A stretch of 47,195 nucleotides of DNA from an uncultured Gammaproteobacteria bacterium (lineage in GTDB: Bacteria > Patescibacteriota > Patescibacteriia > Patescibacteriales > UBA12465): contig CAYZMF010000002.1 of the NCBI GenBank assembly GCA_964479455.1, positions 1 through 47,195 on the forward strand, read 5' to 3'. The notes below the pieces were generated by a model. The model was not told the origin of the DNA, ran no database searches, and was given only the letters and a program-made list of their open reading frames with translations. The translations under genes and the position numbers were made by a program. Positions 8,741 through 39,076 of the stretch are shown in pieces (position 1 is the first letter of the stretch; every line of letters starts with the position of its first letter).

Positions 8741-8743
8741 TCT

Positions 8744-22596: not shown

Positions 22597-23028
22597 ATGT
22601 TTATTGGACAATATACACATAATTTAGATGACAAAGGCAGACTGGCAATTCCGGCTAAGTTTCGCAGTCTTCTTAAGAAAGGGGCAGTTATTACCAAGGG
22701 GTTGGATAATTGTCTTTTTTTATACCCTAAAGACCAATTTACTAAGATGGCAGAAAAGTTTGCCAATTTACCAATTGGTCAATCAAAGGTTAGGGCTTTA
22801 ACTAGACATTTAATTGGCGGAGCGATTGATGTTGAATTTGATAATCAGGGGAGGGTAACTTTACCGGTTCATCTAAGGTCCTTTGCTGCTTTAAATAAGA
22901 ATACGGTAATTTCTGGACTATATAATCATATTGAAATTTGGAATGAAGAAAAGTGGACAGCCTATAAGGGTGAAATAGAAGAAAATAGCAATGATATAGC
23001 TGAGGCTTTAGGGGATTTGGGCATTTAG
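22597..23028 (+). CDS. mraZ: Transcriptional regulator MraZ
   Basis: 143 aa with two SpoVT/AbrB-like halves: LDDKGRLAIPAKFR and FDNQGRVTLPVHLR. Confidence 0.93.
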   Translation: MFIGQYTHNLDDKGRLAIPAKFRSLLKKGAVITKGLDNCLFLYPKDQFTKMAEKFANLPIGQSKVRALTRHLIGGAIDVEFDNQGRVTLPVHLRSFAALNKNTVISGLYNHIEIWNEEKWTAYKGEIEENSNDIAEALGDLGI

Positions 23029-23029
23029 T

Positions 23030-23920: not shown

Positions 23921-23926
23921 ATCAAT

Positions 23927-24259
23927 ATGAAATCTTTCAACTGTTGTTTTAAGAAAAAGAAAAAAAATCTTAGTTTTTTTACGCTTAAAAAAATTAATAT
24001 TGGCCTATTCCTTTTTCTTTTTGTTGTTTCCTTCGCGTATATTCTTTTAGTAAATAATATTACCGTTAAGGGCTTTGAGTTGCGAGATTTACGGGCCCAA
24101 ATTAATGATTTAAATGAAGAAAACCGTAGTCTAGAAACTAATTTAATGAGCATGAAAGCTTATGGCAATATTTATAGTCAAGTAGAGGATTTAAACATGG
24201 TAGCAATAGCAGATTTCGATTATATCAATCTATCTGATTTTAGTGTGGCTAAGAAATAA
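23927..24259 (+). CDS. ftsL: FtsL-like cell division protein
   Basis: 110 aa. Basic N-terminus, one TM, then a coiled-coil (LRAQINDLNEENRSLETNL). It sits in the canonical position between rsmH and ftsI. Confidence 0.65.
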   Translation: MKSFNCCFKKKKKNLSFFTLKKINIGLFLFLFVVSFAYILLVNNITVKGFELRDLRAQINDLNEENRSLETNLMSMKAYGNIYSQVEDLNMVAIADFDYINLSDFSVAKK

Positions 24260-24264
24260 AAAGT

Positions 24265-26208
24265 ATGTGGCAGGATTTTAATCGCAAAAAAGGTCGACAG
24301 AAAATACTGGCACCTAGTAATCGCTTGAACTTTGGTATAGCGATTATTTTTTTATTATTTCTAGCCCTTATTGGGCAATTATTTAAAATACAAATTATTG
24401 ATAATGATAGGTATTTGGCTCTTGCTCTCAATCAACATCAAATAAGCAGTGAACTAAGCCCTGACCGGGGAAAGATTTTTTTGCAAGAAACAATTGCTGG
24501 CAAAAAGATGCCATATTTAGTAGCTAGTAATAAAGACTATGCCTTCATATTTACCATTCCAAAAGATATAAAAGAGCCTCAACTATTGGCCGAGAAATTT
24601 TATCTTTTTTTTGATCAAGAGCAATCCTTAGAAGAGCTAAAAGAAGCTGAAATCGAAGAAGATGAATTAAAAGAATTATTTTTAAAATCTTTTAAAGAAG
24701 AAAAAATAAAGCAGTATCTTAAGATATTGGATAAGCCAGGCGACCCTTATGAGCCATTTTTAGATAAAGTAGAGGATAAATTACTCCTAGATTTTTATGC
24801 TTTTTTAATAAGTGATGAGAAAAACCAATATAGCTCTGATGATTTAATGAGAAAGAGGAATAAAATCTATTTTAAAGATAGTCAAGATTTGATTAATATA
24901 AAGGGGCTTTCTTTTAATATGCAGAGTCATCGTTTCTATCCAGAGCCAAGTCTCGCTTCTCACCTTCTAGGCTTTGTGGGTATGAAGGAGGATAAACTAA
25001 AGGGTCAATACGGAATTGAGGAATTTTTTGAAAAGGAATTAGCCGGACAGTTAGGTTATTTAAAATCTGAGAAAGGAGCTGGCAATACTTTAATCATAAA
25101 TGATCGCGACCATTTTAAAGCTCAGCCTGGTAGCGATCTATTATTAACAATTGACCGCAGTGTTCAATATTATGCTTGTCAAAAATTAGAAGAAACTATT
25201 GGAAATTATCAAGCTAGCGGGGGAAGCGTGATAATCGTGGAAACGCAAACAGGAGCAATTAAGGCTATGTGCTCAAGTCCCGCTTATGATCCAAATAATT
25301 ATCGCCAAGTAGAAGATATTTCTGTTTTTAGTAATCCGGCAGTTTATCATCAATTTGAACCAGGTTCAACTTTTAAAACAATCACGGTCGCAGCGGCTAT
25401 CAATGAGGGGAAGGTAAATCCTAAAACAAGTTTTTTTGATGAAGGGAAAATATTTATTAGTGGCTGGCCTAAAGCGATAACTAATTCCGATTTTGCTAGT
25501 CATGGTGGGCATGGTCTCTCTACGATGCAGGATATGTTAGAAAAATCATTAAATACTGGAGCCATTTTTGCAATGCTTCAAATTGGGCCACAGGTTTTTG
25601 CTCAATATTTACAGGACTTTGGTTTTGGCGAAAGAACGGGAATTGAATTAGGGGCTGAAAGTCCTGGTAATATTGATAATCTACTAGCTAAACGGATTAA
25701 AGAAATTGATGCTGCGACTGCTTCATTTGGTCAAGGGATTGCCGTTACTCCTCTTCAAATGTTAATGTCCTATCAGGCATTAGCTAATAATGGTAAACTA
25801 ATGAAACCCTATATAGTCTCTCAGATTATAAACAAGGGCGATGGCAGTATTATTGAGGTAAAGCCACAAATCGTTCGACAGGTAGTTTCGGAAAAAACTG
25901 CTCAAACCGTGTTGGCAATGCTGGTTAATGTTGTTGAAAAGGGGCATGCTAAAAGAGCGATGATTGAGGGTTACTATATCGGCGGCAAAACGGGAACAGC
26001 CCAAATAGCTAGGCGAGGAGGGTATAGTCGTGATGAATATATTCATGTCTTTACCGGCATATTTCCAATTGATGAGCCTCGTTTTGCGATGATAGTAAAG
26101 CTGGACAAACCTAAGGGGGTTAGGTTTGCCGAAGCTTCCACTGTTCCTTTATGGAAAGATATTGCTCAATTTTTAATCAAACATTATGAAATAGCACCAA
26201 GTCGTTAA
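24265..26208 (+). CDS. ftsI: Penicillin-binding protein (class B transpeptidase, FtsI/PBP2-like)
   Basis: 647 aa. N-terminal TM, dimerisation domain, SxxK (GSTFK), KTGTA (GKTGTAQ). Confidence 0.9.
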   Translation: MWQDFNRKKGRQKILAPSNRLNFGIAIIFLLFLALIGQLFKIQIIDNDRYLALALNQHQISSELSPDRGKIFLQETIAGKKMPYLVASNKDYAFIFTIPKDIKEPQLLAEKFYLFFDQEQSLEELKEAEIEEDELKELFLKSFKEEKIKQYLKILDKPGDPYEPFLDKVEDKLLLDFYAFLISDEKNQYSSDDLMRKRNKIYFKDSQDLINIKGLSFNMQSHRFYPEPSLASHLLGFVGMKEDKLKGQYGIEEFFEKELAGQLGYLKSEKGAGNTLIINDRDHFKAQPGSDLLLTIDRSVQYYACQKLEETIGNYQASGGSVIIVETQTGAIKAMCSSPAYDPNNYRQVEDISVFSNPAVYHQFEPGSTFKTITVAAAINEGKVNPKTSFFDEGKIFISGWPKAITNSDFASHGGHGLSTMQDMLEKSLNTGAIFAMLQIGPQVFAQYLQDFGFGERTGIELGAESPGNIDNLLAKRIKEIDAATASFGQGIAVTPLQMLMSYQALANNGKLMKPYIVSQIINKGDGSIIEVKPQIVRQVVSEKTAQTVLAMLVNVVEKGHAKRAMIEGYYIGGKTGTAQIARRGGYSRDEYIHVFTGIFPIDEPRFAMIVKLDKPKGVRFAEASTVPLWKDIAQFLIKHYEIAPSR

Positions 26209-26211
26209 AAT

Positions 26212-27480
26212 ATGAAAAAAATTTTAGAATTACAATTAAAATTATTAGCGAAACTGGTTTTAAGGAAATATAAGCCAAAGCTTATTAGCATCACTGGTTC
26301 AGTTGGCAAAACCAGCACTAAAGAAGCGAGCTATTTTATTTTAAAAAATCATTTTAGAGTAAGGAGAAGCTATAATAATTATAATAATGAGATTGGCTTA
26401 CCTTTAACTATTTTAGGACAAAAATCAGCCAAGAACTCAATTATAAAGTGGCTTATAATCTTCCTAAAGTCAATTCATTTATTACTAAAGCACGATAAAA
26501 ATTATCCTGAAATTTTGATTTTGGAAATGGGTGTTGACCGACCGGGTGATATGCAGTACTTATGCGACATTGCCAAGCCAGATATTGCCATAGTAACAGC
26601 AATTGGTACAGCCCATCTTGAGTTTTTTAAAAGCCAAGCCAATATTATTAGAGAAAAACAAGTTTTAGTAGAAAATGTTAAAGCTGGAGGCTTAGTTATT
26701 TTAAATCATGATCAAAAAGAAGTTCTAGAGATGGCTAAAAAAAGCCCAGCTAAAAGCCTTAGTTTTGGTTTTTCTAAAAAAGCCGATTTAGGGGCAGTTG
26801 ATTATTTCCTGGATATTAAAAAAGGGGCCAGCTTAAAGCTTAATTTTGAAGGCGCCTTAGTGCCAGCTAATTTTCAAAATATAATTTCAAAAGGAGGGGT
26901 TTATGCCTGTTTAGCTGCCTTATTATTAGCCACTCATTTTGATATTAATCTAATTAAAGGGATTAAAGATTTAAAGAATTTTTCCTTACCAGCTGGTCGA
27001 ATGAAGCCATTTATTGGCCTCAATAACTCGCTCATAATAGATGATAGTTATAATGCCTCTCCTGAGTCAATAATTTTAGCTATTAAAACAATCAAAAGCT
27101 TAAAAAATAAAATTTTAGTATTAGGCGATATTTTAGAAATTGGTGAAGAGATAGCTCAGGCTAGTATTGAAATTGCAAAAGAAATTAATAAATTAAACTT
27201 TAGTCGGGTTATCACTAAAGGAGAAACAGCTATAAATATAAATCGCGAATTATTAGCTTTAGGCTTTTCTCAAAAAAAATTACATCATTTTTCTAGTCCG
27301 AGCCAAATTATTTCCTACTTAAAGCCAAAATTAAGCGAAGACAGTGTTATTCTAGTTAAAGGCAGCCAGGGAGCAAGAATGGAGATTGTAGTTAAAGGTC
27401 TCTTAAAAAATCCTGAATTAGATCAAAAAAATTTAGTCAGACAAGAAGAAGATTGGCTAAAAAGTGCTAAAATGCTATAA
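26212..27480 (+). CDS. murF: UDP-N-acetylmuramoyl-tripeptide--D-alanyl-D-alanine ligase
   Basis: 422 aa. P-loop ITGSVGKTSTKE, YNNYNNEIGLPLT, DDSYNASPES. The N-terminal domain is short. Confidence 0.85.
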   Translation: MKKILELQLKLLAKLVLRKYKPKLISITGSVGKTSTKEASYFILKNHFRVRRSYNNYNNEIGLPLTILGQKSAKNSIIKWLIIFLKSIHLLLKHDKNYPEILILEMGVDRPGDMQYLCDIAKPDIAIVTAIGTAHLEFFKSQANIIREKQVLVENVKAGGLVILNHDQKEVLEMAKKSPAKSLSFGFSKKADLGAVDYFLDIKKGASLKLNFEGALVPANFQNIISKGGVYACLAALLLATHFDINLIKGIKDLKNFSLPAGRMKPFIGLNNSLIIDDSYNASPESIILAIKTIKSLKNKILVLGDILEIGEEIAQASIEIAKEINKLNFSRVITKGETAININRELLALGFSQKKLHHFSSPSQIISYLKPKLSEDSVILVKGSQGARMEIVVKGLLKNPELDQKNLVRQEEDWLKSAKML

Positions 27481-27481
27481 T
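27473..27481 (+). promoter_or_regulatory. Extended -10 element TGCTATAAT inside the 3' end of murF
   Basis: The exact 9-mer lies 6 nt upstream of the rfbD ATG (27488). It includes the murF stop codon. Confidence 0.35.
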
Positions 27482-27487
27482 TTACTT

Positions 27488-28351
27488 ATGAAAAAAGCAT
27501 TAATCTTAGGCTCTAAGGGGAATTTAGGAGGGCAAATAGTGAAGGAGTTTAGACACGATTATCAATTAATACCTTTAGATAAAGAGCAAATTAATTTATT
27601 TGAAATTCCAAAATTAGCCTCTTTCTTAGAGCAATTTAAACCTAGTATCATTGTTAATACAGTTGCCTATAACAAAGTAGATGACTGCCAGGACTCAAGC
27701 GAAGAATATCAGAAGGCGCTTTTTTTAAATGAAAAATTAGTTGGTTTTTTAGCTGATTGGAGTCTGGAGAGAGAAGCCACCCTTATTCACTATTCAAGTG
27801 ATTATGTTTTTAACTCAGATAATATAGACCATCAAGGTTTTTTAGAAAAGGATCAAACTAAGCCAATTAATAAATATGGCTTAAGTAAGTCATTAGGAGA
27901 AAAAAAGATTTTAGCTCTGGCTAATAAGGGTCTCGCTTATTATCTAATTAGAAGCTCTAAACTATTTGGACCAGTCGGAAAAAGTCCAAATAGTAAGCCA
28001 AGTTTTTTTGACATAATGATAAAATTGAGTCAGGCTAATAAAAAGATAAGAGTGGTAAGTAGTGAGAGAAGTTGCTTTACTTATACCCCCGATTTAGCTC
28101 AGGCCAGTCTTTCCTTGTTAAAAGACCAAGCTAAATATGGCATTTACCATTTAGTCAACGAAAATCCAGTTACTTGGTATCAAGCTTTAGTTTTTTTGTT
28201 TGAATATTTAAAAATTAAAAATGTAGAAATTGAAGCAGTTAAGAGCTTAGAGAGAATTGCTCCTAGACCTATTTCTTCAATTTTAATTAACAGCAAAAGA
28301 AGAAAGCTAAGACCCTATACTGAGGCTTTATTAAATTATTATAAACAATAA
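27488..28351 (+). CDS. rfbD: dTDP-4-dehydrorhamnose reductase
   Basis: MKKALILGSKGNLGGQ (Rossmann), HYSSDYVF, YGLSKSLGE. I prefer the ATG at 27488 over the ORF-track start at 27464. Confidence 0.85.
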   Translation: MKKALILGSKGNLGGQIVKEFRHDYQLIPLDKEQINLFEIPKLASFLEQFKPSIIVNTVAYNKVDDCQDSSEEYQKALFLNEKLVGFLADWSLEREATLIHYSSDYVFNSDNIDHQGFLEKDQTKPINKYGLSKSLGEKKILALANKGLAYYLIRSSKLFGPVGKSPNSKPSFFDIMIKLSQANKKIRVVSSERSCFTYTPDLAQASLSLLKDQAKYGIYHLVNENPVTWYQALVFLFEYLKIKNVEIEAVKSLERIAPRPISSILINSKRRKLRPYTEALLNYYKQ

Positions 28352-28355
28352 ATAT

Positions 28356-29081
28356 ATGAGAGGAATCATTTTATCAGGAGGAAGTGGCACTAGGCTTCAC
28401 CCATTAACAAAAATCACTAGCAAGCAATTACTACCAGTCTATTCCAAGCCAATGATATACTATCCCCTCAATACCTTAATTAAGGCAGGTATTAAGGAAA
28501 TATTAATTATAGTCTCGCCAGAAAGGGCTGGTGATTATTTAAACCTACTAGGCAGCGGAAAAGATTTTGGCGTTAAGTTTACTTACGAAATACAAGATAA
28601 GCCGGAAGGTCTAGCCCAAGCTTTCATCATCGCCGAGAATTTCATTGATAAAGAAGATGTGACTATGATCTTGGGTGATAATATTTTCAGCGATGACTTT
28701 AGCCAAGATATTGCTAGTTTTAAATCGGGAGCTAAAATTTTCGCCAAAGAAGTATCTGATCCAGAAAGGTTTGGGGTTGTTAAGTTTGATGAGGAAAACA
28801 AAGCCCAGCAAATTGTGGAGAAACCTAAGGAATTTTTAAGTTCCTGGGCAGTAGTTGGGCTCTATATCTATGATCACAGTGTAGTGGAAGTAGCTAAGAA
28901 CTTAAAACCTAGTGCGCGTGGTGAGTTAGAGATAAGTGATTTAAATAGTCATTACTTAAAGGAACAAAAATTAGAAGTAGCTAAAGTAATGGGCGATTGG
29001 CTTGACGCCGGTACCTTCGACAGCCTTCTTAAAGCCCAGAATTTAGCTAAAGAAAAACTTGTCGATAAGCTGATAATATGA
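28356..29081 (+). CDS. rfbA: Glucose-1-phosphate thymidylyltransferase-like sugar nucleotidyltransferase (short form)
   Basis: 241 aa. MRGIILSGGSGTRLHPLTKITSKQLLPVYSKPMIYYPL, GLAQAF, LGDNIF, DAGT. Confidence 0.85.
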   Translation: MRGIILSGGSGTRLHPLTKITSKQLLPVYSKPMIYYPLNTLIKAGIKEILIIVSPERAGDYLNLLGSGKDFGVKFTYEIQDKPEGLAQAFIIAENFIDKEDVTMILGDNIFSDDFSQDIASFKSGAKIFAKEVSDPERFGVVKFDEENKAQQIVEKPKEFLSSWAVVGLYIYDHSVVEVAKNLKPSARGELEISDLNSHYLKEQKLEVAKVMGDWLDAGTFDSLLKAQNLAKEKLVDKLII

Positions 29082-29992
29082 AACTAGTGATTGCCACCTT
29101 GCTTTACCGACAAAATTCTTTTAATTACCTGCCATTTTTTTTGAATAGTTTAAAAACAGCCAGCTCAGTTTTAGACTTTAAATTTAAAATTTTCTTAGGT
29201 GACAATAGTGGCTCAGATTTAAATAACTTAAATTATCTAAAAAGGCAAAAAATAATTGATCAATCTAAAATTAATTATTATAAGTTTAAAACAAATCTTG
29301 GCTTTGCCAAAGGCTATAATAAATTAATTACTGAGGCTTCTAAAATGAGGGCTGAGTATTTTCTAGCTTTAAATCCTGATGTTTTATGCTCAAAAGAGGC
29401 TATTTTAAACTTAGTAAAGGCAAGCGATTTAAATTCAAAACTAGCCTCTCTCTCGCCTAAAATACTAGTTTGGGATTTTAATAATAATAGGCTAAAATCT
29501 CAAATTGATTCTTGTGGCTTAGTATTAAAAGCCGGACTAAAGTTTAAAGATTTAGGGCAGGGCAGAGAAGACAAAAATCAATATGTTCAAAATGAGATAA
29601 TCGGCCCCTCTGGGGCAGTTGCTTTATATAAAATGTCAGCTTTGGAGAAGGTCAAAGAAAATGATCAATACTTTGATGAAAATTTTTTTATGTACAAAGA
29701 GGATTGCGACCTGGCCTATCGCTTCTATCTAAATAATTTAAGCAGTAAGACAATCAACAACTCTATTTTCTATCATGACCGAAGTGTTTCTGGAGGTAGT
29801 TTGATTAATAGAATTAATAATCGCTTAAAAAGAAGTCGCCAAGTCCGGGCTTGGTCATTTCAAGGACAAGTTTATATTTACAAAAAACATTTCTCAACAC
29901 AATCATTTTTAAACAAGCTCATCATTATTTTTAATTTAATAAAACTCTATACATACTCTCTTCTTTTTGAGAGATTTGTTTTTAGAAAATAG
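29078..29992 (+). CDS. Glycosyltransferase family 2
   Basis: 304 aa. GFAKGYN, LNPDV, GAVALYK, MYKEDCDLAYR (ED motif). ATGA overlap with rfbA. Confidence 0.8.
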   Translation: MKLVIATLLYRQNSFNYLPFFLNSLKTASSVLDFKFKIFLGDNSGSDLNNLNYLKRQKIIDQSKINYYKFKTNLGFAKGYNKLITEASKMRAEYFLALNPDVLCSKEAILNLVKASDLNSKLASLSPKILVWDFNNNRLKSQIDSCGLVLKAGLKFKDLGQGREDKNQYVQNEIIGPSGAVALYKMSALEKVKENDQYFDENFFMYKEDCDLAYRFYLNNLSSKTINNSIFYHDRSVSGGSLINRINNRLKRSRQVRAWSFQGQVYIYKKHFSTQSFLNKLIIIFNLIKLYTYSLLFERFVFRK

Positions 29993-30054: not shown

Positions 30055-31080
30055 ATGGACAATATCACTTTAGAGAAAATTATTCAAGAAAGGCAAGCCG
30101 AGGAGTTAAAAAGGCTTAATTCGGTTTCTATGATGGAGGGTCTTTTAGCTAAACTCTTAGACAGAGAGAAGGATGTTTTAAATAGGCGCTTTTCTCTAGA
30201 TGGCCGTCCTAGTGAAACCTTAGAAAAGATTGGTGGTATTCATAATTTAACTAGGGAAAGAGTCAGGCAAATTGAGGCAGCCAGTATTAAAAAGATAAGA
30301 AAGTATAGTGACCTTGATGAAAGTTTAACTACCTTAAAGAGAGTGGTTGGACATCTATTAGAAGAGCACGGTGGTTTACTTAAAAAAGATTTCTTATTAG
30401 ATATTTTAACTGTTTTAAGTGTTGAGTTAAGTGGTGAGGCTGATTTGGCTGAAAAGAAGGAGGTCTATAAAAATAATTTTGATTTCATTATTTCTAAAAT
30501 TTTAGCAGATAAATTTGATTTTATTAACAAATCTGACCGTTTTAATCCGATTATTAGATTAAAGGAAGAAAAAATAGATCACCTTGAAAATTTAGCTGAT
30601 GACTTGTTGAGTAAGATTGATACTCTCAAGCAAACTTTAACGACGGAAGAATTAGTTGATATGCTTAAAAAACTAGACGCCTATACTCGCTATCAAGAAA
30701 AATTAAATAAAGAGAAAAGTATTGATATCTTTCCTCTTTATAAAAGCCAGACTTTTTATGATAAGGCAGAAATTATCAATAGCAATAAGGTGCTCTATTC
30801 TTTAATTCAAGCGATTAAAAACTTGGAAAGAAATCAGTATGGCTATTGGGGGAAGTCTGATTGGCAGGAAATAAAACCTAAAACTATCAATGACAAAATA
30901 TTTTTAGTTTTAAAACACTATGGACAGCCTTTACATTTTACTAAAATTGCTGAAAAAATTAATGAGGCAAAATTTGATCATAAACTAGCTAACGCTGCTA
31001 CAGTTCATAATGAATTAATTCTAGATGACCGCTATGTTTTAATTGGGCGGGGGACTTATGGATTAAAGGCTTGGCAATAA
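30055..31080 (+). CDS. Sigma-70 region-4 HTH protein with C-terminal HARE-HTH-like domain (not a complete sigma factor)
   Basis: 341 aa. Residues ~30-85 LLDREKDVLNRRFSL...ETLEKIGGIHNLTRERVRQIEAASIKKIRK are sigma region 4. The C-terminus ...IFLVLKHYGQPLHFTKIAEKI...TVHNELILDDRYVLIGRGTYGLKAW resembles the HARE-HTH/RpoE-delta N-domain. No region 2 is present. Confidence 0.7.
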   Translation: MDNITLEKIIQERQAEELKRLNSVSMMEGLLAKLLDREKDVLNRRFSLDGRPSETLEKIGGIHNLTRERVRQIEAASIKKIRKYSDLDESLTTLKRVVGHLLEEHGGLLKKDFLLDILTVLSVELSGEADLAEKKEVYKNNFDFIISKILADKFDFINKSDRFNPIIRLKEEKIDHLENLADDLLSKIDTLKQTLTTEELVDMLKKLDAYTRYQEKLNKEKSIDIFPLYKSQTFYDKAEIINSNKVLYSLIQAIKNLERNQYGYWGKSDWQEIKPKTINDKIFLVLKHYGQPLHFTKIAEKINEAKFDHKLANAATVHNELILDDRYVLIGRGTYGLKAWQ

Positions 31081-31111
31081 TCAATTTAGATAATAATTTA
31101 TCGATAAAAAA

Positions 31112-31141
31112 GAAAACTACCTTAGGGTAGTATTTTCTTTA
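31112..31141 (+). terminator. Rho-independent terminator
   Basis: Stem gaaaactacc / ggtag-t-(a)-ttttc with one bulge, loop ttag, followed by a T-rich tail. Confidence 0.5.
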
Positions 31142-31155
31142 TATATTATTATTTT

Positions 31156-31164
31156 TGTGATAAT
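31156..31164 (+). promoter_or_regulatory. Extended -10 element TGTGATAAT
   Basis: tgtgataat lies 8 nt upstream of the ATG at 31173, directly after the terminator. No SD is present. Confidence 0.4.
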
Positions 31165-31172
31165 ATAGAGAC

Positions 31173-32582
31173 ATGGAACCTTTTTTGTATTCAAATTCAA
31201 TGACAAGTTCAAGTGTTTCAAATTTCCTTGGCTGGGATTTTTATATTCTGCTGGCTATTATTATATTTGGAATTACTTATTTAGCTGGCTTTTCGTATTT
31301 CTATTTAATGCAGTTAAGAACCAAGTGGTCTGAGGCTAATTTAAGATTTATTATTCTGGCACTTGATATTCCTAAGGCAAATGAGCAGTCTCCCAAGGCA
31401 ACTGAAAACATGTTTTCCTATTTAGGCGGAGCCCATGGGGGAGTTACTTTTTTTGAAAAATGGTTTGAAGGGAAGTTTCAAGTTTCTTTTAGTTATGAAC
31501 TTATTAGCCTAGAAGGCTATACTCAATTTTTAATTAGATGTCCAATTGAATTTCGTAATTTAGTTGAAACCTCGGTCTATTCCCAGTACCCAGATGCGGA
31601 AATAATCGAAGTGGATGATTATGTTGATAACTTACCCCATAGATTTCCCGATGAGGAATATGATATTTGGGGAACTGAATTTATGTTAGCCAAACCTAAT
31701 CCTTATCCAATTAAATTGTATCGAGAATTTGAGTATATTAGCGGTCCGAGCGAAACTCAGTTTAAAGATCCAATGGCCTTATTAATGGATCTCTATAGTT
31801 CACTTGGTCTTGGGGAGTATGTTTATCTGCAAATAATTATAGTGCCGATTGGCTTTGATTGGATTGAAGAAAGTGAAAAGGAGGCGGCTAAAATTTTAGG
31901 TCGGAAGCCAGCTTACAAAAAAGATATGTCCGATAGATTTGTGGAGGTAATGGGTGAGGTTAGTGAGTTTATCTACCCACTTTGGGGTGATATAGAGGAG
32001 AAACCAAGACAGGAAGAAAAACAGCCGACAATGATGGATCTTACCCCAAAACAAAAAAAACAGATTGAAGCGGTTCAAGAGAAAGCCTCAAAATTAGCTT
32101 TTGAGGTAAAAATCAGAGCTGTCTATATCGCCAAAAAAGAGGTTTTTCATAAAGCAAAGGTGGCCAATGGTTTAGTTGGTTACATGAAGCAATTTACCGC
32201 CCTAGATTTAAATAATTTAATGCCTGATATTAAGGGCACTCTAACTAAAACAAGTTATTTCTCAAAAAAACAAAGATTGATTATTAAGAAAAATAATATT
32301 ATTAGAAATTATATTAATCGTGATGACTTTGCAGGTTCGCGTTCCAGTATTTTAAATATTGAAGAGCTAGCTACTCTTTGGCACTTTCCAATTGAAGCTT
32401 CAGTTAAGGGTCCATTAATTAAGAAAGCCCCGGGTCGTAAGGCTGACGCCCCTTCATCACTGCCAGTCTCTGAAGGCAAACAAGAGTTGATAAGCGAAGA
32501 TTTAAACTTTAAATTTGATGAGGATAAAAAAGAAGAGTCAAAGGAAATTAATATACCGGAGAATTTGCCCTTTATTGACTAA
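31173..32582 (+). CDS. Uncharacterised single-pass membrane protein
   Basis: 469 aa. TM helix FYILLAIIIFGITYLAGFSYFYL, then LRFIILALDIPKANEQSPKATENMFSYLGG..., an acidic/Lys-rich linker, and C-terminal ILNIEELATLWHFP. Confidence 0.7.
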   Translation: MEPFLYSNSMTSSSVSNFLGWDFYILLAIIIFGITYLAGFSYFYLMQLRTKWSEANLRFIILALDIPKANEQSPKATENMFSYLGGAHGGVTFFEKWFEGKFQVSFSYELISLEGYTQFLIRCPIEFRNLVETSVYSQYPDAEIIEVDDYVDNLPHRFPDEEYDIWGTEFMLAKPNPYPIKLYREFEYISGPSETQFKDPMALLMDLYSSLGLGEYVYLQIIIVPIGFDWIEESEKEAAKILGRKPAYKKDMSDRFVEVMGEVSEFIYPLWGDIEEKPRQEEKQPTMMDLTPKQKKQIEAVQEKASKLAFEVKIRAVYIAKKEVFHKAKVANGLVGYMKQFTALDLNNLMPDIKGTLTKTSYFSKKQRLIIKKNNIIRNYINRDDFAGSRSSILNIEELATLWHFPIEASVKGPLIKKAPGRKADAPSSLPVSEGKQELISEDLNFKFDEDKKEESKEINIPENLPFID

Positions 32583-32585
32583 TTT

Positions 32586-33737
32586 ATGAAAAAAAAAATT
32601 AAAATTGGAATTGATGCTCGTCTTTTTGGACCGGTTGGAAAAGGACTAGGGCGTTATATGGAGGAGTTAATAAAAAAAATGCTATTAATAAGTAAAGAGC
32701 AGCACTTTGTTGTTTTTTTAAATAGTTCAAATTTTAATTTGCTGCCAGAGGCTGATAATTTAGAAAAAGTATTAGTTGATATTAAGTGGTATAGTTTGAA
32801 AGAACAGATTATTTTGCCCCGCTTAATTAGAGAAAAGAAAATAGACTTAATGCATTTTCCTCATTTTAACGCGGCTATATTTTGCCCCTGTCCTTTTGTG
32901 CTTACAATTCATGATTTAATCTTAACTAAGTTTCCCTCAATTAAAGCCTCTAGCTTGTCTTATTTAAGTTATTGGTTTAAATACTTTATGTATCGGCTGG
33001 TTATTAAGATAGCGGTTTTAAGAGCGAGGAAAATTATCACTGTTTCTCTTTTTAGTAAAAATGATATCATTAAGAAATTAAAAGTTAAAAGCCAAAAAAT
33101 TGTGGTCATCTATGAAGGGGTTTCTAAACTGAAAAATTCAAGCCTCAAGGAAGATGATCTAATTAAAAAATATGACTTAAAGGGGCCATATATTCTCTAT
33201 ATTGGCAATGCCTATCCTCACAAAAATTTAGACTTTCTGCTAAAAGCTTTGTTTGAGATAAGAAATAGGGGAGAGAAGACTAGATTGGTTTTAGTCGGTA
33301 AAGAAGATTATTTTTACCAGCAATTAAAGAAAAATGCTGGAAATTTAAAGATATATCAAAAATATGATATAATTAAAAGTCCGGTAGTTTTCACTGGCTA
33401 TGTTAGTGATAATCAGTTAAAAAAATTATATCAGAAAGCTTTTTTTTACGCCTTTCCCTCCTTTTATGAGGGATTTGGCTTACCTCCACTTGAGGCTATG
33501 TCTCAATCCTGTTTAGTCTTATCATCTAATCAGTCTTGCTTACCAGAAATACTATCTCAAGCAGCTATTTATTTCTCTCCTTTTAAGCTAGATGATTTTA
33601 TAGAAAAGTATTTTCAGCTGAAAAATAATCCCAGTATTAAAGATATTTATGTCAAAAGAGGACAGAAGCAAATTTTAAAATACAGCTGGCATAAATGTGC
33701 CCAAGAAACTTTAAAGATTTACCGGGAATCCTTATGA
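32586..33737 (+). CDS. Glycosyltransferase family 4 (GT-B, GT1-type)
   Basis: 383 aa. C-terminal half has the FPSFYEGFGLPPLEAM motif (E-x7-E type). Confidence 0.85.
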   Translation: MKKKIKIGIDARLFGPVGKGLGRYMEELIKKMLLISKEQHFVVFLNSSNFNLLPEADNLEKVLVDIKWYSLKEQIILPRLIREKKIDLMHFPHFNAAIFCPCPFVLTIHDLILTKFPSIKASSLSYLSYWFKYFMYRLVIKIAVLRARKIITVSLFSKNDIIKKLKVKSQKIVVIYEGVSKLKNSSLKEDDLIKKYDLKGPYILYIGNAYPHKNLDFLLKALFEIRNRGEKTRLVLVGKEDYFYQQLKKNAGNLKIYQKYDIIKSPVVFTGYVSDNQLKKLYQKAFFYAFPSFYEGFGLPPLEAMSQSCLVLSSNQSCLPEILSQAAIYFSPFKLDDFIEKYFQLKNNPSIKDIYVKRGQKQILKYSWHKCAQETLKIYRESL

Positions 33738-36064
33738 AGAAAAAAAAATTAAAATTGAATATTATTGAAAATCCGAAATCATTATCGACTTCTTTTGTTA
33801 TTAACCTAAAAGATTTAAGTGTTAATAAAAAAAGAAGAGTTTCTAAGCTACCCTTTTTTCAAAAAAAAAATTTGGAAGTAAATTTTGCTACTAAAATTAA
33901 AAAAAGTTTTAGAAAAATTAATTTTAAAATCAAAAGAAGGCCAAGCACTAAAAGGCTTTGGTCGCAGAGATTGAGGGCCTTTTCTCAAGTTTTAAATAAT
34001 AACAAGGAAGAAAAGCAACTAAAGAAATCTAGATCTAGATCAATTCTGGCCTTTATTCTTATCCTTATTTTTCTAATTATTCCTTTTAAATTTCTCAGTT
34101 ATTTAAAAGTAATTGATATTTCAGGCTTGGAGAACAAGATTTTTAGTCATAGTCAGGCTGCCTTTAATAATTTAGGTCTAGCCAGCAATTCAATAAAAAA
34201 ACTAAATTTAGATGAGGCTAGTTCTAATTTTAATTTAGCGGCTGGCGATTTTAGAGAGGCTAGTTTAGAATTAGAAAAATTTAATATCCTGCTACTTAAA
34301 TTAGCAAAATATTCTAATGATCCAAAATTTAAATTAGCCTCAGCTGCCCCTCATTTTTTAGAGGCTGGTAAAAGAGCAGCTAATTTAGGTCAGTACTTAA
34401 GTTTGGGTTTTGAAGCTTTTTTAAATAATAATAATGATTGGGAAGAAAAGATTAAATCCTTTTTTAATTATAATAATTTAGCCTTGAGTGAAATTTATGA
34501 GCTAAATAAAGCCTTAGACAAGATTGACCCCAAGCTAGTGCCAATTGAGCATCAAGCTTTATATTCATTATATGAAAATACTGCCAAGGAGATAGAAGGT
34601 TCTTTAGCTGCTGTTAAAAACCTAGAAAATACTTTCTATACTATTTTAGGTTTTGACAGGAAGCAGAGATATCTCCTTGTTTTTCAGAATAATTATGAAA
34701 TGAGAGCTAGTGGTGGATTTATGGGCAGCTACGCCTTAGTCGATGTTTTAAATGGAGCAATTGTGAACTTAGAGGTCCCTAGTGGTGGCAGCTATGACAC
34801 AGAAGCGGGCATGACCAGCTTTATTGCCTCACCTGAGCCTTTATGGCTAGTTAGTCCTCGTTGGTATCTTTGGGATGCTAATTGGTGGCCAGATTGGCCA
34901 ACTAGTGCTAAGAATATAATGTATTTATACGAAAAAAGTAGTGGTCCGAGCGTTGATGGAGTAATTGCCTTTAACTTGCCGGTTTTAGAAACTTTACTTA
35001 AATTAACGGGACCAATTGACTTGGGGGACGACTATGGGCTAAGAATTGATGATCAAAACTTTTGGCTTCTTTTGCAAAAGACCACTGAAAAGAAAAATCT
35101 TTTACTTAGTCATTCTCAAGAATTAATGGATATTCCCGATAGTTTAGAAAATGAACCAAAGCAAATAATTGCTGACTTAATGACCTCTGTTTTAGAAATT
35201 TTACCTGAGAAACTTAACTTTGAAAGCTTAGCTTTTTTACTGCAAAGTTTAAACCAGCACCTAAAAGCTAAGGATATATTGTTATACTTTAATGACAGAC
35301 TGCCTCAAGAAAAAATTAATGAACTAGGTTTATCAGCTTCAATTTCTCAAACAGATTATGATTATTTAATGATTATAAATAGCAATATTGCTGGGCAAAA
35401 AACAGATAAAGTGATGGAGGAAAAAGTTTTTCTAGATACTAAAATTTTGAAAGATGGTCGGATCATAAATGAACTAACAATCGCTAAAAAACATACCGGT
35501 CTCAAAAATGAAATATTTACAGGAGTTAGAAATGTAAATTGGTTAAGGGTCTATGTCCCGGAGGGTAGTAAATTGATTTCTGCCAGTGGCTTTAAGACGC
35601 CTGATTTGGAATATTTTAGCTATCCAGAAGATGAGTGGGAAAATATTCCCTTAGTTGAAGAAGGGGAGAAAAGGGCCGAGATTGATCCCCAATCAAAAAC
35701 CTTGGTTTATCAAGAATTAGATAAAACAGTTTTTGCCAATTGGACAATGACAGATCCTCAAAAGCATTCAGTGATTAAATTAAAATATGAATTACCCTTC
35801 AAGTTTAAGCCCTTAGCGCAGGAACAGTCCTGGCTTAAGAGTTTAATCTCGAAAGACGGCAGAGAAAGTTATTTTCATTCCTTGCTCCTTCAAAAGCAAG
35901 CCGGCTTAAAAGACTTTCAATTCTATTCGAGGATGAGAGCCGAAGGGAATTGGCAGCTTAAGTGGTTCTACCCTGAAAATATGTCTAATTCGCAATATAT
36001 TTGGTCAATAGATGAAATAATTAATCAAGATAAAATTTGGGCTTTTAGTGCTCAAGCTTTATAA
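33734..36064 (+). CDS. DUF4012-type single-pass membrane protein
   Basis: Lys-rich N-terminus, TM ILAFILILIFLIIPF, and the motif RYLLVFQNNYEMRASGGFMGSYALV, which I recall as the DUF4012 signature. The ATG at 33734 overlaps the GT4 stop (ATGA). Confidence 0.75.
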   Translation: MKKKKLKLNIIENPKSLSTSFVINLKDLSVNKKRRVSKLPFFQKKNLEVNFATKIKKSFRKINFKIKRRPSTKRLWSQRLRAFSQVLNNNKEEKQLKKSRSRSILAFILILIFLIIPFKFLSYLKVIDISGLENKIFSHSQAAFNNLGLASNSIKKLNLDEASSNFNLAAGDFREASLELEKFNILLLKLAKYSNDPKFKLASAAPHFLEAGKRAANLGQYLSLGFEAFLNNNNDWEEKIKSFFNYNNLALSEIYELNKALDKIDPKLVPIEHQALYSLYENTAKEIEGSLAAVKNLENTFYTILGFDRKQRYLLVFQNNYEMRASGGFMGSYALVDVLNGAIVNLEVPSGGSYDTEAGMTSFIASPEPLWLVSPRWYLWDANWWPDWPTSAKNIMYLYEKSSGPSVDGVIAFNLPVLETLLKLTGPIDLGDDYGLRIDDQNFWLLLQKTTEKKNLLLSHSQELMDIPDSLENEPKQIIADLMTSVLEILPEKLNFESLAFLLQSLNQHLKAKDILLYFNDRLPQEKINELGLSASISQTDYDYLMIINSNIAGQKTDKVMEEKVFLDTKILKDGRIINELTIAKKHTGLKNEIFTGVRNVNWLRVYVPEGSKLISASGFKTPDLEYFSYPEDEWENIPLVEEGEKRAEIDPQSKTLVYQELDKTVFANWTMTDPQKHSVIKLKYELPFKFKPLAQEQSWLKSLISKDGRESYFHSLLLQKQAGLKDFQFYSRMRAEGNWQLKWFYPENMSNSQYIWSIDEIINQDKIWAFSAQAL

Positions 36065-36069
36065 AAAAT

Positions 36070-37953
36070 ATGCAAAATAATAAAAAAGGATCACAATTTA
36101 CGCAGCGTCCCTTGCCTAGTCAAGAAGATGTTTCGCGTTTTGAAAAAAATGTTAATAAAGAAATTAGGGAAGTGGAGATAAGTGACAACTTAGAAGATAT
36201 TTATAAAGATAAAGAGGGGAAATTGATTGATGTCGCTAATGATAAATTTAGGAAGAAGCGGTCTTGGTTATTGATAATTTTTAAAAACCTCTTTATTATC
36301 GGTATAATTTTAAGTGCCCTTTATTTAGCCTATAGCTATCTTAGTAATTATTATTATGCCAGCACCGGTAGTCCTAATTTAGAAATAATAGTACCCGAGA
36401 AGGTTGTTTTAGGGGAAGAAGTGTCATATATAATTAAATATCATAACCCCTCAATGATTAGTCTCAATGACTTAAATTTAGATTTAACTTTGCCAAAAAG
36501 CTTTGTAATAAATGATTTTTCCTTAGAGCCAAGTTCACTTCATAGTTGGAGTTTAGGAGAACTTGGCCCAAAAACAGGTGGGGAAATTATTATAAAGGGC
36601 TACTTTGTAAATTTACAAGATTTTCCCAATACTGCTAGTGCTTCTTTATCATATGTACCCGCTAATTTTTCTAGTCAGTTTAGCAAACAAGTCAGTGCCA
36701 ATACCCTTGTTTCAGATTTAGGCTTTAATCTCAGTTTAGATTATCAAAGTACTAATATGCTTGGTCAAGAAAATGAGGTTAAATTAAAATTTAACAATAT
36801 TGATGATTTTCAGCTTGAAAATATTATTTTAGAAATAGAAAAACCTGATAATTTTATTTGGCAAGAGCAGAAAAATGACAATCTTGAGACATTAGGCGAT
36901 AATCGGTTTAAAATAAAGAATTTTGAAGAAGAAATTATTTTTAAATACCTTATTACTGAAAAAAAAGCTGATCACCAAGGACTAAGCTTTTCTTTATATA
37001 GCGATGACCTTTTGTTTTGGGAGCAGAGCTACCTAGTTGAAATTTTAAAAAGTGATTTAGAACTGGCTTTAAGCGTTAATGATAGTCGTCAACAATTAGC
37101 GGCTGGCTTTGGCGAGACTTTAAATTATAAGCTAGAATTCTCTAATCATGGCGAGGCAGATATTGTTGATTTAGTTTTAATGGTGGTTTTAGAAGGTGAG
37201 ATTCTTGATTTAAATAGTCTTGAGTCAAATTTAAATTACCAAATAATGGACAATGTTATCATTTTCACTAAAAAAGAAATTGAAAAACTAGCAAATTTTA
37301 AGGCCGGAGAGAATTCTGAGCTAAGCTTTTCAGTTAAAACAAAAAGTTTTAACTCTCAGTACATAGCTCAGGAGTTGAAGCTAGTTAATTTTGCTCAGTA
37401 TAGTTTAGCTGGTAGCAGTAGTCAATTAGAGGACAATAAGAGCAATGAAGTAGAGATAGTGATTAATTCAGATTTAAGCCTTAGTGAAGAATTAAGGTAT
37501 TTCGATGAAAATAATTTCACAGTCGGTTCTGGTCCTTTACCACCAAAGGTGGGTGAAGAAACTAGCTTACGCTTCTATTGGACTCTAAAAAATAATGTCC
37601 ATGACTTAGATGATGTTTCTGTCCTCCTAGACTTACCAGACTTTGTTCAATTTGGTGATTTTTCTCAAGCAACGGTTGGTGCTATCAATTATAATCCTGA
37701 CTTGCATCAAGTTGCCTGGATAATTGAAGAAATGCCAATTTCAATTTTTAGAGCCGACGCCTACTTCAATATTAAATTGATCCCGACAAGCGGGGATCTT
37801 AATAAAATTTTAGTTCTGTCGCCCGGCACTCAAGTTTCCGCTTATGATAAGGTGACAGCTGGTCAAATTAGTATTAAAAAAAATACTAAGACAACTGCTT
37901 TAGAGGATGATGAGATTGCCCTTCTCAATAATCATGGTCGGGTAATTGAATAA
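36070..37953 (+). CDS. Single-pass membrane protein with repeated Ig-like (CARDB/DUF11-like) modules
   Basis: 627 aa. TM WLLIIFKNLFIIGIILSALYLAY. Repeated modules, e.g. VVLGEEVSYIIKYHN..., AAGFGETLNYKLEFSNHGEADI..., PPKVGEETSLRFYWTLKNNVHDL... Confidence 0.7.
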   Translation: MQNNKKGSQFTQRPLPSQEDVSRFEKNVNKEIREVEISDNLEDIYKDKEGKLIDVANDKFRKKRSWLLIIFKNLFIIGIILSALYLAYSYLSNYYYASTGSPNLEIIVPEKVVLGEEVSYIIKYHNPSMISLNDLNLDLTLPKSFVINDFSLEPSSLHSWSLGELGPKTGGEIIIKGYFVNLQDFPNTASASLSYVPANFSSQFSKQVSANTLVSDLGFNLSLDYQSTNMLGQENEVKLKFNNIDDFQLENIILEIEKPDNFIWQEQKNDNLETLGDNRFKIKNFEEEIIFKYLITEKKADHQGLSFSLYSDDLLFWEQSYLVEILKSDLELALSVNDSRQQLAAGFGETLNYKLEFSNHGEADIVDLVLMVVLEGEILDLNSLESNLNYQIMDNVIIFTKKEIEKLANFKAGENSELSFSVKTKSFNSQYIAQELKLVNFAQYSLAGSSSQLEDNKSNEVEIVINSDLSLSEELRYFDENNFTVGSGPLPPKVGEETSLRFYWTLKNNVHDLDDVSVLLDLPDFVQFGDFSQATVGAINYNPDLHQVAWIIEEMPISIFRADAYFNIKLIPTSGDLNKILVLSPGTQVSAYDKVTAGQISIKKNTKTTALEDDEIALLNNHGRVIE

Positions 37954-39076
37954 TAATATTGTGTATAAATTAAAAACTAAAACAAAGTATCGCCAAGGAA
38001 AACTTCAAACTAAAAGCGGTAGTTTAAACACACCCATCTTTTTACCTGACGCCACTCGAGGTTTTTTAAAGTTAAGCGATAAGCAGACTTTAAGTAAATT
38101 AAAATATGATGCTTTAGTAATTAACACTTTTCATCTATATCTTCAACCAGGGCGGGATTTAATAAAAAAATTTAAAGGCATCCATTCTTTTATGTCCTGG
38201 CCAAAGATATTGCTATCTGATAGTGGTGGTTTTCAGGTTTTTTCACTTATTTACAAAAACAAGAAGATGGGGGAAATTAGTGATTGGGCGGTTAAATTTA
38301 AGTCACCTCTTAATGGTTCGTGGCATAGCTTTAGCCCCGAGAAATCGCTTGCTATCCAATTTGATTTAAATACTGACATTATGGTTTGCTTAGATGATTG
38401 CCCGCCCAATGATAGCGAATTTTTAGTTATGGAAAAATCAGTGGCACGGACAATTGCCTGGGCAAAAAGATCAAAGCAAGAATTTGAAAAACAAATTAAA
38501 AAACGGAAAATTAAGGAAGAAAAGCGCCCTCTTCTTTTAGCCGTTATTCAGGGGGGTTTAGACCTGGGTTTAAGGAAATTCTGCGCCGAGGAATTGATTA
38601 AAATAGGCTTTGATGCTTATGGCTTTGGAGCTAGGCCAGTTGACAAGGAGGGGAATTTTTTAGAGGAAGTCTTGAGGGAAACAGCTAAGCTTATCCCCCC
38701 CGACAAGCTCCGTTTTGCCTTAGGAGTAGGTCTGCCTGAAGATATTTATCGTGCCTACCAATTGGGTTGGGATGCCTTTGATTGCGTTATTCCTAGCCGT
38801 GAAGGAAGGCATGGGCGCCTTTTTTATTTCAATAAAAATTTTAAGGGCTTGGACAAAAGACTAGACTTTTACTACACTATAAACATCAAGAATGCAAAGT
38901 TTAAAAATGATAAAAGTTTAATCAATGAAAATAGTCAATTTAAAAGCTTAGCTGATCATAACTTAGCCTATTTACACCATCTTTTTAAAGCCAATGAACC
39001 ACTCGGTCAGTATCTAGCCAGTTTAAATAATTTAGAATTCTATCAAAATTTAATTAAATATCTTAAAAAATTATGA
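37946..39076 (+). CDS. tgt: tRNA-guanine transglycosylase family protein, divergent (Zn-site ligands absent)
   Basis: LSDSGGFQVFSL, LDDC, AVIQGG, GVGLPEDI, DAFDCVIPSREGRHG. The ORF-track start is a TTG at 37946. A GTG at 37961 (VYKLKTKTKYRQGKL) aligns better with the E. coli Tgt N-terminus. Confidence 0.8.
   Translation: MNNNIVYKLKTKTKYRQGKLQTKSGSLNTPIFLPDATRGFLKLSDKQTLSKLKYDALVINTFHLYLQPGRDLIKKFKGIHSFMSWPKILLSDSGGFQVFSLIYKNKKMGEISDWAVKFKSPLNGSWHSFSPEKSLAIQFDLNTDIMVCLDDCPPNDSEFLVMEKSVARTIAWAKRSKQEFEKQIKKRKIKEEKRPLLLAVIQGGLDLGLRKFCAEELIKIGFDAYGFGARPVDKEGNFLEEVLRETAKLIPPDKLRFALGVGLPEDIYRAYQLGWDAFDCVIPSREGRHGRLFYFNKNFKGLDKRLDFYYTINIKNAKFKNDKSLINENSQFKSLADHNLAYLHHLFKANEPLGQYLASLNNLEFYQNLIKYLKKL

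Follow-up and report, generated by a model that had tools for sequence, protein, structure and literature searches.

The window analyzed here is the whole 47,195-nucleotide stretch taken from contig CAYZMF010000002.1 (positions 1 to 47,195). It is AT-rich (GC around 0.33), has its genes almost all on one strand, and encodes proteins whose homologues are found in Patescibacteria, mainly in Falkowbacteria-like genomes. The subject of the study is a block of four consecutive open reading frames (ORFs), referred to as genes A (31173–32582, +, 469 aa), B (32586–33737, +, 383 aa), C (33734–36064, +, 776 aa) and D (36070–37953, +, 627 aa). A codes for a membrane protein annotated as PF26449, B for a GT4 glycosyltransferase, C for a membrane protein with a DUF4012 domain, and D for a membrane-anchored protein made of Ig-like modules. 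An earlier interpretation (the sequence-only reading) had proposed that the four products form a single envelope or surface-assembly module. Its observations were partly confirmed and its interpretation is partly supported by the results below, which favor, with a probability of about 0.65, that the block is the junction of two unrelated systems: A would be the membrane half of a split ATPase resembling the type IV coupling proteins (T4CPs), and B-C-D would belong to a lipid-linked glycan pathway.

Layout of the block and its expression signals

The positions of the four ORFs and their three junctions are as the sequence-only reading gave them: TAA-TTT-ATG between A and B, with a 3-nt gap; ATGA between B and C, a 4-nt overlap; and TAA-AAAAT-ATG between C and D, with a 5-nt gap. 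The length of 789 aa given there for the product of C is a longest-ORF artefact. The longest ORF, also used by a gene caller, begins at 33695, 39 nt upstream and within the GT4 gene, but 57 homologues begin at what is Met14 of the 789-aa ORF. So, the true start is the ATG at 33734, and the product has 776 aa rather than 789, in agreement with the gene coordinates already given.

Two signals noted earlier ahead of gene A are indeed present. The first is a terminator-like hairpin, AAAGAAAACTACC-TTAG-GGTAGTATTTTCTTT followed by a T-run, at 31109–31141 (+), with a dG of -12.4 kcal/mol and a scan match at 31116–31131. It comes after the gene named here Sg, the upstream neighbor of A. The second is an extended -10-like element, TGTGATAAT, at 31156–31164 (+), only 8 nt ahead of the ATG of A, which implies a putatively leaderless or near-leaderless mRNA. 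An extended -10 element (pattern TGnTA[ATC]A[AT]T) precedes A in 75 of 78 related loci, and a perfect-stem hairpin with a T-run does so in 41 of the 78. Since both recur in relatives, they are not due to chance, and the transcription unit has a credible start.

Concerning the other end of the unit, no terminator is evident within the block, and gene D overlaps by 8 nt the gene that follows it, tgt (tRNA-guanine transglycosylase, 37946–39076). No gap longer than 10 nt is found downstream until 43677, through tgt and the genes for pyruvate kinase, enolase, a radical-SAM enzyme, superoxide dismutase and a phosphatase. As the short gaps run past D, the unit has no demonstrated end at 37953, and the proposal of one transcription unit comprising just these four genes stands for its beginning but not for its end. 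The tight spacing, taken earlier as the mark of a four-gene block, is the background of this genome, since the same-strand gaps of the window have a median of 3 nt and 31 out of 39 are not longer than 10 nt. It is therefore no evidence for a four-gene unit. A more general caution follows for such compact genomes: neither gaps of 3 nt nor synteny across a clade are enough to delimit a functional unit.

Gene A and the ATPase next to it in diverse loci

Gene A is assigned to PF26449.1 in a precomputed annotation table, as are nearly all its homologues. Scans against Pfam and NCBIfam (the latter at E ≤ 0.1) gave no family, no P-loop or ATPase domain, and no match to the VirB4 families, so the protein is not a VirB4. 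Hydropathy and charge counts indicate a single transmembrane (TM) helix at residues 23–41 (31239–31295, +), contained in a longer helix (residues 15–56) of the AlphaFold2 (AF2) model. The 22 residues before it are devoid of Lys and Arg, which come after the helix. The same bias is seen across 245 family sequences, with a K+R count of 0.55 in the 15 residues before the helix versus 2.42 after it, the latter exceeding the former in 85% of the sequences. On account of this family-wide positive-inside charge bias, A is predicted to be oriented N-out, with its alpha/beta body of about 380 residues in the cytoplasm. The sequence-only reading had assigned one and the same topology to A, C and D, namely a cytoplasmic N-terminus, one TM helix and a large extracytoplasmic body. 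This holds for C and D, as described below, but not for A.

Two sequence stretches singled out in that reading, LDIPK...MFSYLGG and EELATLWHFP, turned out to be genuine signatures of the family: among 73 homologues of A, LAIDIPK...NMFxYLxGAH and EELATLWHFP show little or no variation. The EELATLWHFP motif (residues 397–406; 32361–32390, +) closes the globular domain and is found in most of 150 representatives taken at 50% identity. After it comes a first PPxxLP copy, within a KKxEPPxxLP segment, and the protein ends, after a variable acidic linker, with PENLPF (residues 462–467; 32556–32573, +). The latter corresponds to a family motif PPxNLP[FIVL], located at the extreme C-terminus in nearly all the 150 representatives, even in those with 31–40% identity. 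Judged by this conservation, the terminal PPxNLP peptide is a candidate docking motif.

In the AF2 model of A (pLDDT 74, pTM 0.70), a long TM helix is accompanied by alpha/beta domains, and the tail is disordered. When it was compared by Foldseek to the PDB, the top 13 matches were the only significant ones, and all of them were TrwK/VirB4 chains of R388's type IV secretion system, or T4SS (E 1e-4 to 3e-3, prob 0.97–1.0, with a TM-score of 0.33 and an rmsd of about 12 Å), no other RecA-type ATPase appearing among the matches. Since A has no P-loop, the likeness is most likely to the VirB4-specific N-terminal domain. Alignment with hhalign of the profile of A to TrsD of pGO1 (0.1), TrsE of pGO1 and TrwK of R388 (0.25) gave probabilities of 0.3 or lower. 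Single-sequence searches of the PDB with A, C and D, and profile searches with A2, A3 and A4, yielded nothing significant. With the profile comparisons giving no signal, it is the Foldseek result by itself that links A to VirB4; it is suggestive of a VirB4-N-terminal-domain-like fold in the model of A.

The family of A is large, with 2,079 clusters at 50% identity and members of about 430–690 aa in an exhaustive profile search. Two samples of it were considered. The 80 best GTDB species matches constitute a close-relative sample, which represents the clade of the window, while a consensus of 140 representatives was used to collect 80 diverse metagenomic loci, 72 of them with sequence downstream of A. 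In this diverse sample, 54 of the 72 loci contain a VirD4/TraD-like ATPase gene downstream of A, on the same strand and within 3 kb. This count was obtained by tblastn, as ORF-based counting gives lower values because of the long tails of A and of spurious antisense ORFs. A B-like GT4 gene follows A in only 6 of the 72 loci, and DUF4012 is present in 3, all with the arrangement of the window. The statement in the sequence-only reading that proteins with the layout of A often sit beside VirB4/TraG-like ATPases was thus correct, the usual partner being of the VirD4/TraD type, and it provides the key to A.

The neighboring ATPase matches PF10412 TrwB_AAD_bind (7e-13), PF12696 TraG-D_C, PF02534 T4SS-DNA_transf and a treble-clef zinc finger, as well as TrwB in the PDB (2e-5). 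Of 39 copies inspected, 34 are free of any TM or hydrophobic segment; the Walker A motif lies at median residue 40, and a CxxC...CxxC pattern is present in 28. Lacking a TM segment, the protein can be described as a coupling-protein motor without the usual membrane anchor. In NCBIfam it has a weak likeness, far below the curated cut-offs, to coupling proteins of the TraD type and to CedD, a DNA-translocating ATPase of archaea, which hints at a nucleic-acid cargo.

No ATPase fusion occurs among the best 150 members of the A family. In an 854-aa paralogue (L136:16090-18654(-)), both halves are joined in one polypeptide, with an A-like domain at residues 44–413 (E 3.6e-43 against the profile of the family) and a T4CP ATPase at residues 424–761, whose Walker A is at 440. 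The fusion point follows a PPPTNMP stretch, the counterpart of the KKxEPPxxLP segment of A. The same contig carries a split A gene besides the fused paralogue, and some genomes thus have both forms. The fused layout is also found outside Patescibacteria, in the megaplasmid NZ_CP045273.1 of Priestia megaterium, where an unannotated ORF (L176:6938-9253), apparently broken by a frameshift near 8542–8774, codes for a product in which an A-like domain, together with a TM helix, is joined to a T4CP ATPase bearing a Walker A motif.

Upstream of A, the window contains Sg (30055–31080, +), which codes for a sigma-70 region 4 (residues 30–83; PF04545, 4.3e-11) and a C-terminal HARE-HTH domain similar to RNA polymerase delta (PF05066, 1.1e-5). 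This gene is conserved ahead of A across diverse Patescibacteria: it lies directly upstream of A in 34 of the 66 diverse loci with an upstream neighbor, and in 78 of the 80 close ones. In diverse loci, secF and secD often precede Sg. SecD and SecF were found neither in the window nor in the 80 close loci.

Compared to known systems, the suggested resemblance of A to the N-terminal domain of VirB4 (TrwK of R388) is that of the only significant fold matches of its model, while A differs in having no ATPase domain and in having its own TM helix. The suggested fold agrees with the literature, where TrsD has been described as a stand-alone protein remotely similar to the N-terminus of VirB4, and as the most abundant T4SS component of Patescibacteria (PMC12102498). 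The TrsD-TrsE pair of pGO1 offers a parallel, since in most lineages of A a non-ATPase protein resembling the VirB4 N-terminus is encoded directly upstream of an ATPase of the VirB4/VirD4 superfamily. However, A has no detectable sequence likeness to TrsD of pGO1 and no NCBIfam TrsD match, and patescibacterial TrsD mostly adjoins virB4 (PMC12102498), whereas A adjoins a VirD4-type ATPase and, upstream, secDF. The lack of a sequence match and the VirD4-type partner in place of virB4 indicate that A is not the surveyed TrsD. Concerning the T4CPs (VirD4, TrwB, TraD), the usual partner of A matches their families, and the fused paralogue has their layout of membrane anchor plus motor. The canonical proteins, however, bear their anchor, short and made of two helices, at the N-terminus of their own chain, whereas A is a separate protein of 470 aa with a large cytoplasmic domain; its partner shows a zinc ribbon as well as a long, disordered tail, and the genes of the pair are not near virB4 or a relaxase. 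No T4SS locus (virB4 with VirB3-, VirB6-, VirB8- or VirB1-like genes) was found among the ORFs of the window scanned with Pfam.

This context is of interest because 5,713 VirD4-type homologues have been counted in 2,918 Patescibacteria genomes, 148 of them near virB4, which amounts to about two per genome, nearly all far from virB4 and with no proposed role (PMC12102498). It seems reasonable to interpret that A may tether a soluble hexameric motor of the VirD4/TrwB/TraD family to the membrane, the globular domain of A and its C-terminal peptide being the probable contacts. A dedicated and highly conserved membrane partner would give the orphan VirD4-type ATPase a testable architecture.

Genes B, C and D and their glycan context

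The domain assignments made for B and C from the sequence alone were upheld, and so was the modular build of D. B is a cytoplasmic GT4 enzyme of the GT-B type, with matches to PF00534 (1.4e-24; 87 bits for a cut-off of 26.4) and PF13439 (1.9e-13; 51 bits for a cut-off of 28.5), and the E-x7-E motif of retaining GT4 enzymes can be read in its translation as EGFGLPPLE. C passes the Pfam threshold for DUF4012 (PF13196; 92.5 bits for a cut-off of 28, E 4.5e-26). The core of this domain (residues 310–448; 34661–35077, +) includes the previously noticed signature QNNxEMRxxGGFxGSYA, with columns invariant in 58 homologues.

The TM helix of C (residues 103–121; 34040–34096, +) is preceded by 102 residues, 33 of which are Lys or Arg. 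In 120 family sequences the K+R count is 4.4 before the helix versus 1.95 after it, which indicates an N-in orientation with the body outside. The AF2 model (pLDDT 79.8) displays a disordered cytoplasmic tail rich in Lys and Arg, the TM helix, and an extracytoplasmic part formed by a bundle of long helices, the alpha/beta core of DUF4012 and C-terminal beta-sandwiches. Compared to the PDB by Foldseek, the model gave only partial matches of the beta-sandwich kind (N-domain of M1 aminopeptidases, ribophorin I; TM-score about 0.13), which were discarded as uninformative. The invariant columns are mostly polar or aromatic, and comprise the Q, N, N, E and R of the signature, several Asp and Glu, and a cluster of Trp. 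Such a surface is what would be expected of a carbohydrate-handling site.

D has its TM segment at residues 66–92 (36265–36345, +), and in 114 family sequences the K+R count is 4.8 before the helix versus 0.9 after it, again N-in with the body outside. The rest of the protein consists of three to four homologous modules of about 115 aa (residues 95–215, 216–330, 331–460 and 461–627; 36352–37950, +). The homology among segments was supported by hhalign at probabilities of 98.4% (E 1e-14), 95.5% (E 1.6e-8) and 82% (E 1e-5). In D itself, the matches to DUF11 and DUF7619 (PF01345/PF24595) at residues 334–456 are below the Pfam cut-offs (19.6 bits for 24.6 and 21.2 bits for 27), and precomputed annotation gives PF01345 in 111 of the 120 homologues listed, in line with the modular Ig-like character proposed earlier. 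The protein evolves fast, with identities down to 27% among the 158 matches retrieved. DUF11 (PF01345) has been renamed CLIPPER and described as a CnaA-like Ig fold of surface stalks (PMC12617251). D resembles the fibrillar adhesins and stalks of that group in its repeated, outward-facing Ig-like modules, and differs from them in being anchored by an N-terminal TM helix instead of a sortase, OmpA or archaeosortase signal, and in having no recognizable adhesive tip.

No match to LytR_cpsA_psr, SLH/S-layer, sortase or pilin domains was found in A–D with Pfam or NCBIfam, or among the Foldseek matches of the A and C models. No profile or fold match places C or D in a characterized S-layer, LCP/teichoic-acid or pilus pathway.

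The conservation of gene order was considered as a test of functional linkage. The 80 closest GTDB species were rejected for this purpose because about 20 kb are collinear in all of them: the close loci share the order Sg-A-B-C-D-Tgt, with mraZ, rsmH, a penicillin-binding protein (PBP), a Mur ligase, rmlD, rfbA and GT2 upstream, and pyk and eno downstream. With these 20 kb frozen in the clade of the window, gene order there tests nothing. Therefore, the ten most divergent homologues of D on long contigs (27–34% identity) were taken as a distant sample. C lies directly upstream of D in nine of these ten loci, and an orthologue of B (43–48% identity) is directly upstream of C in six and within three genes in eight, while A and the T4CP are absent from all ten. 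The four-gene order is thus restricted to the clade of the window, whereas B-C-D is kept in distant lineages. Accordingly, of the proposed glycan and surface module, the trio of GT4, DUF4012 protein and Ig-like membrane protein is the part linked to glycan synthesis, and A is not a member of it. The conserved glycan-linked unit is best read as that trio.

The neighbors of the trio are coherent with this. A Bac_transf priming phosphoglycosyltransferase followed by three GT4 genes occurs in three of the distant loci (L166, L168 and L169), and a PMT_2 enzyme of the GT-C type in three others (L171, L173 and L174), a fourth showing a weak STT3/PMT_2 match. A gene for the undecaprenyl-diphosphatase BacA/UppP (PF02673, 5e-53) is inserted between A and B, directly upstream of B, in 5 of the 80 close loci (L038:11578-12375, and also L048, L060, L068 and L076). 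Outside Patescibacteria, DUF4012 is flanked on a Rhodococcus plasmid by a priming sugar transferase and a glycosyltransferase, with rfbABC and a GT4 gene next to them. In Streptomyces its neighbors are glycosyltransferases together with a Wzc-like kinase and an O-antigen-ligase-like gene. In the exopolysaccharide cluster of Bifidobacterium longum it is found between the priming transferase and wzz (PMC5412050). Méheust et al. (PMC6744442) reported the enrichment of DUF4012 in the Candidate Phyla Radiation (CPR) and in Gram-positive bacteria, and considered it probably related to the envelope.

The patescibacterial C is therefore like the Gram-positive DUF4012 proteins (e.g., BL105A_0406 of the B. 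longum cluster) in its setting among glycosyltransferase and sugar-nucleotide genes, as in Bifidobacterium, Rhodococcus and Streptomyces, and differs in having one particular Ig-like membrane protein (D) and one particular GT4 orthologue as its partners. As to the lipid-linked glycan pathways (Wzx/Wzy, or GT-C enzymes of the PMT/ArnT type), relatives of the window have Bac_transf, serial GT4 genes, UppP or PMT_2 directly upstream of B-C-D. The differences are that no flippase, polymerase, chain-length regulator, LCP ligase or ABC exporter is identified in the window, and that DUF4012 and D have no counterparts in textbook pathways.

Upstream of Sg, the window contains rmlD (PF04321, 5.5e-51), a short, rfbA-like glucose-1-phosphate nucleotidyltransferase gene (PF00483, 4.7e-65) and a GT2 gene (PF00535, 5.6e-6), at 27464–29992 (+), which plausibly feed the B-C-D module. 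Using the products of these genes, B would most likely add a sugar to a polyprenyl-phosphate-linked intermediate at the inner face of the membrane. C would most likely come into play after flipping, its ectodomain handling the glycan, or transferring it, on the outer side, and D would be a membrane-anchored Ig-like stalk, the likely partner of C or glycan acceptor at the cell surface. In this reading, the trio is the conserved, outer-face end of the pathway and most likely completes a surface glycan of these ultra-small cells.

Two observations on the surroundings of these genes may be recorded. The start of a dcw-type cluster (22597–27480), with mraZ, rsmH, a weak FtsL-like ORF of 110 aa, a class B PBP and a Mur ligase, leads straight into rmlD, the rfbA-like gene and GT2. 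In the distant locus L166, the region directly downstream of the D homologue (L166:12005-14766) contains a diversity-generating retroelement, with an RVT_1 reverse transcriptase, bAvd and a 124-nt template/variable repeat pair of 84% identity (13487–13610 and 14000–14123). The idea that it targets D was considered and rejected, as the variable repeat is inside a separate gene of 258 aa.

The A-B junction and the rival explanations

Several points weigh against the view that the block joins two unrelated systems. The A-B-C-D order and its tight junctions are invariant in all the assessable loci of the clade (80 species representatives), and A is there probably co-transcribed with B-D, which could reflect co-option. 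A search for a T4CP-like ATPase in the window, and up to 10 kb from A in the 80 close loci, gave none, and the partner of A is assumed to be encoded somewhere else in this genome. The VirB4 likeness of A is limited to the fold level and is not confirmed by sequence or profile methods, and DUF4012 has no solved or functionally tested relative. The ORFs of the window, scanned with Pfam, include no recognizable priming transferase (Bac_transf), flippase (Wzx), polymerase (Wzy) or Wzm/Wzt. Finally, D and tgt are adjacent in five of the ten distant loci (L167, L170, L171, L173 and L174), although Tgt is a tRNA enzyme. As this adjacency is kept without an evident functional link, adjacency alone is weak evidence in these genomes. 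With no ATPase near A in the clade of the window, the A-B junction is best seen as a rearrangement breakpoint. The two halves of the A-ATPase system would have been separated in this clade, with the ATPase encoded elsewhere. Gene content, charge bias, the counts of gene order, the fusion and the domain assignments are direct observations, and the contact of A with the ATPase, the lipid-linked nature of the substrate and the parts played by C and D are inferred from them.

A stronger, combined proposal is that PF26449 is the missing membrane subunit of the orphan VirD4-like ATPases and that, at the same time, DUF4012 is a new extracytoplasmic enzyme that transfers or ligates glycans. We consider it tentative and rather doubtful. 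In such a case, a split motor with a VirB4-like N-terminal half, independent of the virB4 T4SS locus and usually encoded after secDF and the sigma-region-4/HARE-HTH gene, would move DNA or protein across a single membrane, while DUF4012 and its dedicated GT4 would decorate or anchor the stalk protein D, giving rise to a glycosylated surface layer on these epibionts.

Among the rival explanations, the one that survives best concerns B-C-D only. According to it, these genes are neighbors merely by inherited order, C and D being general envelope proteins unrelated to the GT4 or to each other. Adjacency with no shared function does occur, as in the D-tgt case or in the packing together of dcw, rml and glycolysis genes, and one distant locus (L167) has D without an adjacent C. 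However, C and D stay adjacent in the other nine in spite of the low identity of D and of varied flanks; the specific orthologue of B tracks C in eight of ten; coherent neighbors (phosphoglycosyltransferase, GT4 enzymes, PMT_2, UppP) recur in independent arrangements; and DUF4012 appears in polysaccharide loci of two other phyla, Actinomycetota and Bacillota. This explanation seems thus unlikely.

The possible co-option of A deserves a separate comment. Deprived of an adjacent ATPase, A could have become a cytoplasmic membrane scaffold that recruits B to the site of C and D. The stable A-B junction, with its 3-nt gap across the clade, the lack of a T4CP gene within 10 kb, and the location of both A and B at the cytoplasmic face agree with this. 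On the other hand, A of this clade keeps every family signature, including EELATLWHFP and the terminal PPxNLP, with 55–64% identity to relatives, which argues for an unchanged function. In addition, the insertion of UppP between A and B is tolerated in a subclade, and B-C-D occurs elsewhere without A. We regard co-option as quite improbable.

The proposal that the four products make up one envelope or surface-assembly machine, with three single-pass proteins of large ectodomain and a cytoplasmic GT4, fares somewhat worse and can be considered largely refuted. It is true that the order, with junctions of 3, -4 and 5 nt, does not vary among 80 species of the clade, and that a conserved promoter-like element stands before A with no terminator evident in the block. 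But the collinearity of 20 kb deprives that order of a specific signal, tight spacing is genome-wide, and UppP separates A from B in five close loci. Furthermore, the predicted location of the body of A is the cytoplasm. In 54 of 72 diverse loci the partner of A is a T4CP-like ATPase, to which an A-like domain is fused in a paralogue, and A is missing from all ten distant B-C-D or C-D loci. Hardly credible is, lastly, a minimal monoderm apparatus of the T4SS-like kind, driven by A and its ATPase, to which C and D would contribute the extracellular channel, adhesin or stalk: the C-D pair is close to A in the window, D looks like an adhesin stalk and monoderm T4SSs use surface adhesins (PMC12102498), but outside the clade neither A nor the T4CP ever has C and D beside it (the three of 72 loci with DUF4012 being window-like), DUF4012 is embedded in polysaccharide loci of bacteria lacking the A family, and no VirB6, VirB8 or VirB1 homologues were found among the Pfam-scanned ORFs of the window.

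Concerning novelty, the GT4, DUF4012, DUF11-like and PF26449 families are all catalogued, and no categorically new family is present. In the literature searched, the role of PF26449 as the split-off membrane half of an orphan T4CP-like ATPase appears to be undescribed, and so does the triad of GT4, DUF4012 and Ig-like proteins, no mention of the pairing of D with GT4 and DUF4012 having been found there. The main text of Wang et al. 2023 (PMC10633639) makes no mention of VirD4, coupling protein, DUF4012, VirB4, glycosyltransferase or S-layer. Both systems matter because Patescibacteria live attached to other cells with minimal genomes, so that envelope and translocation machines, mostly unannotated, are central to their survival. 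Since DUF4012 distinguishes CPR and Gram-positive bacteria (PMC6744442), the stable triad provides it with a genetic context and a candidate acceptor protein.

Other features of the window lie away from the block. At 6086–11219, genes for a HlyD-like membrane-fusion protein (643 aa), an ABC ATPase and two MacB/FtsX-type permeases stand in a row, a set like that of a tripartite pump, yet the organism is presumed to have a single membrane. The left edge of the window contains a gene for a DpnII-type restriction endonuclease (15–935; PF04556, E 4e-93). Families of pyrimidine 5'-nucleotidases of the UMPH-1 type are mainly eukaryotic; a strong match to UMPH-1 (PF05822, E 3.8e-63) is found at 11419–12279, and this gene may have a bearing on how nucleotides are salvaged in a reduced genome.

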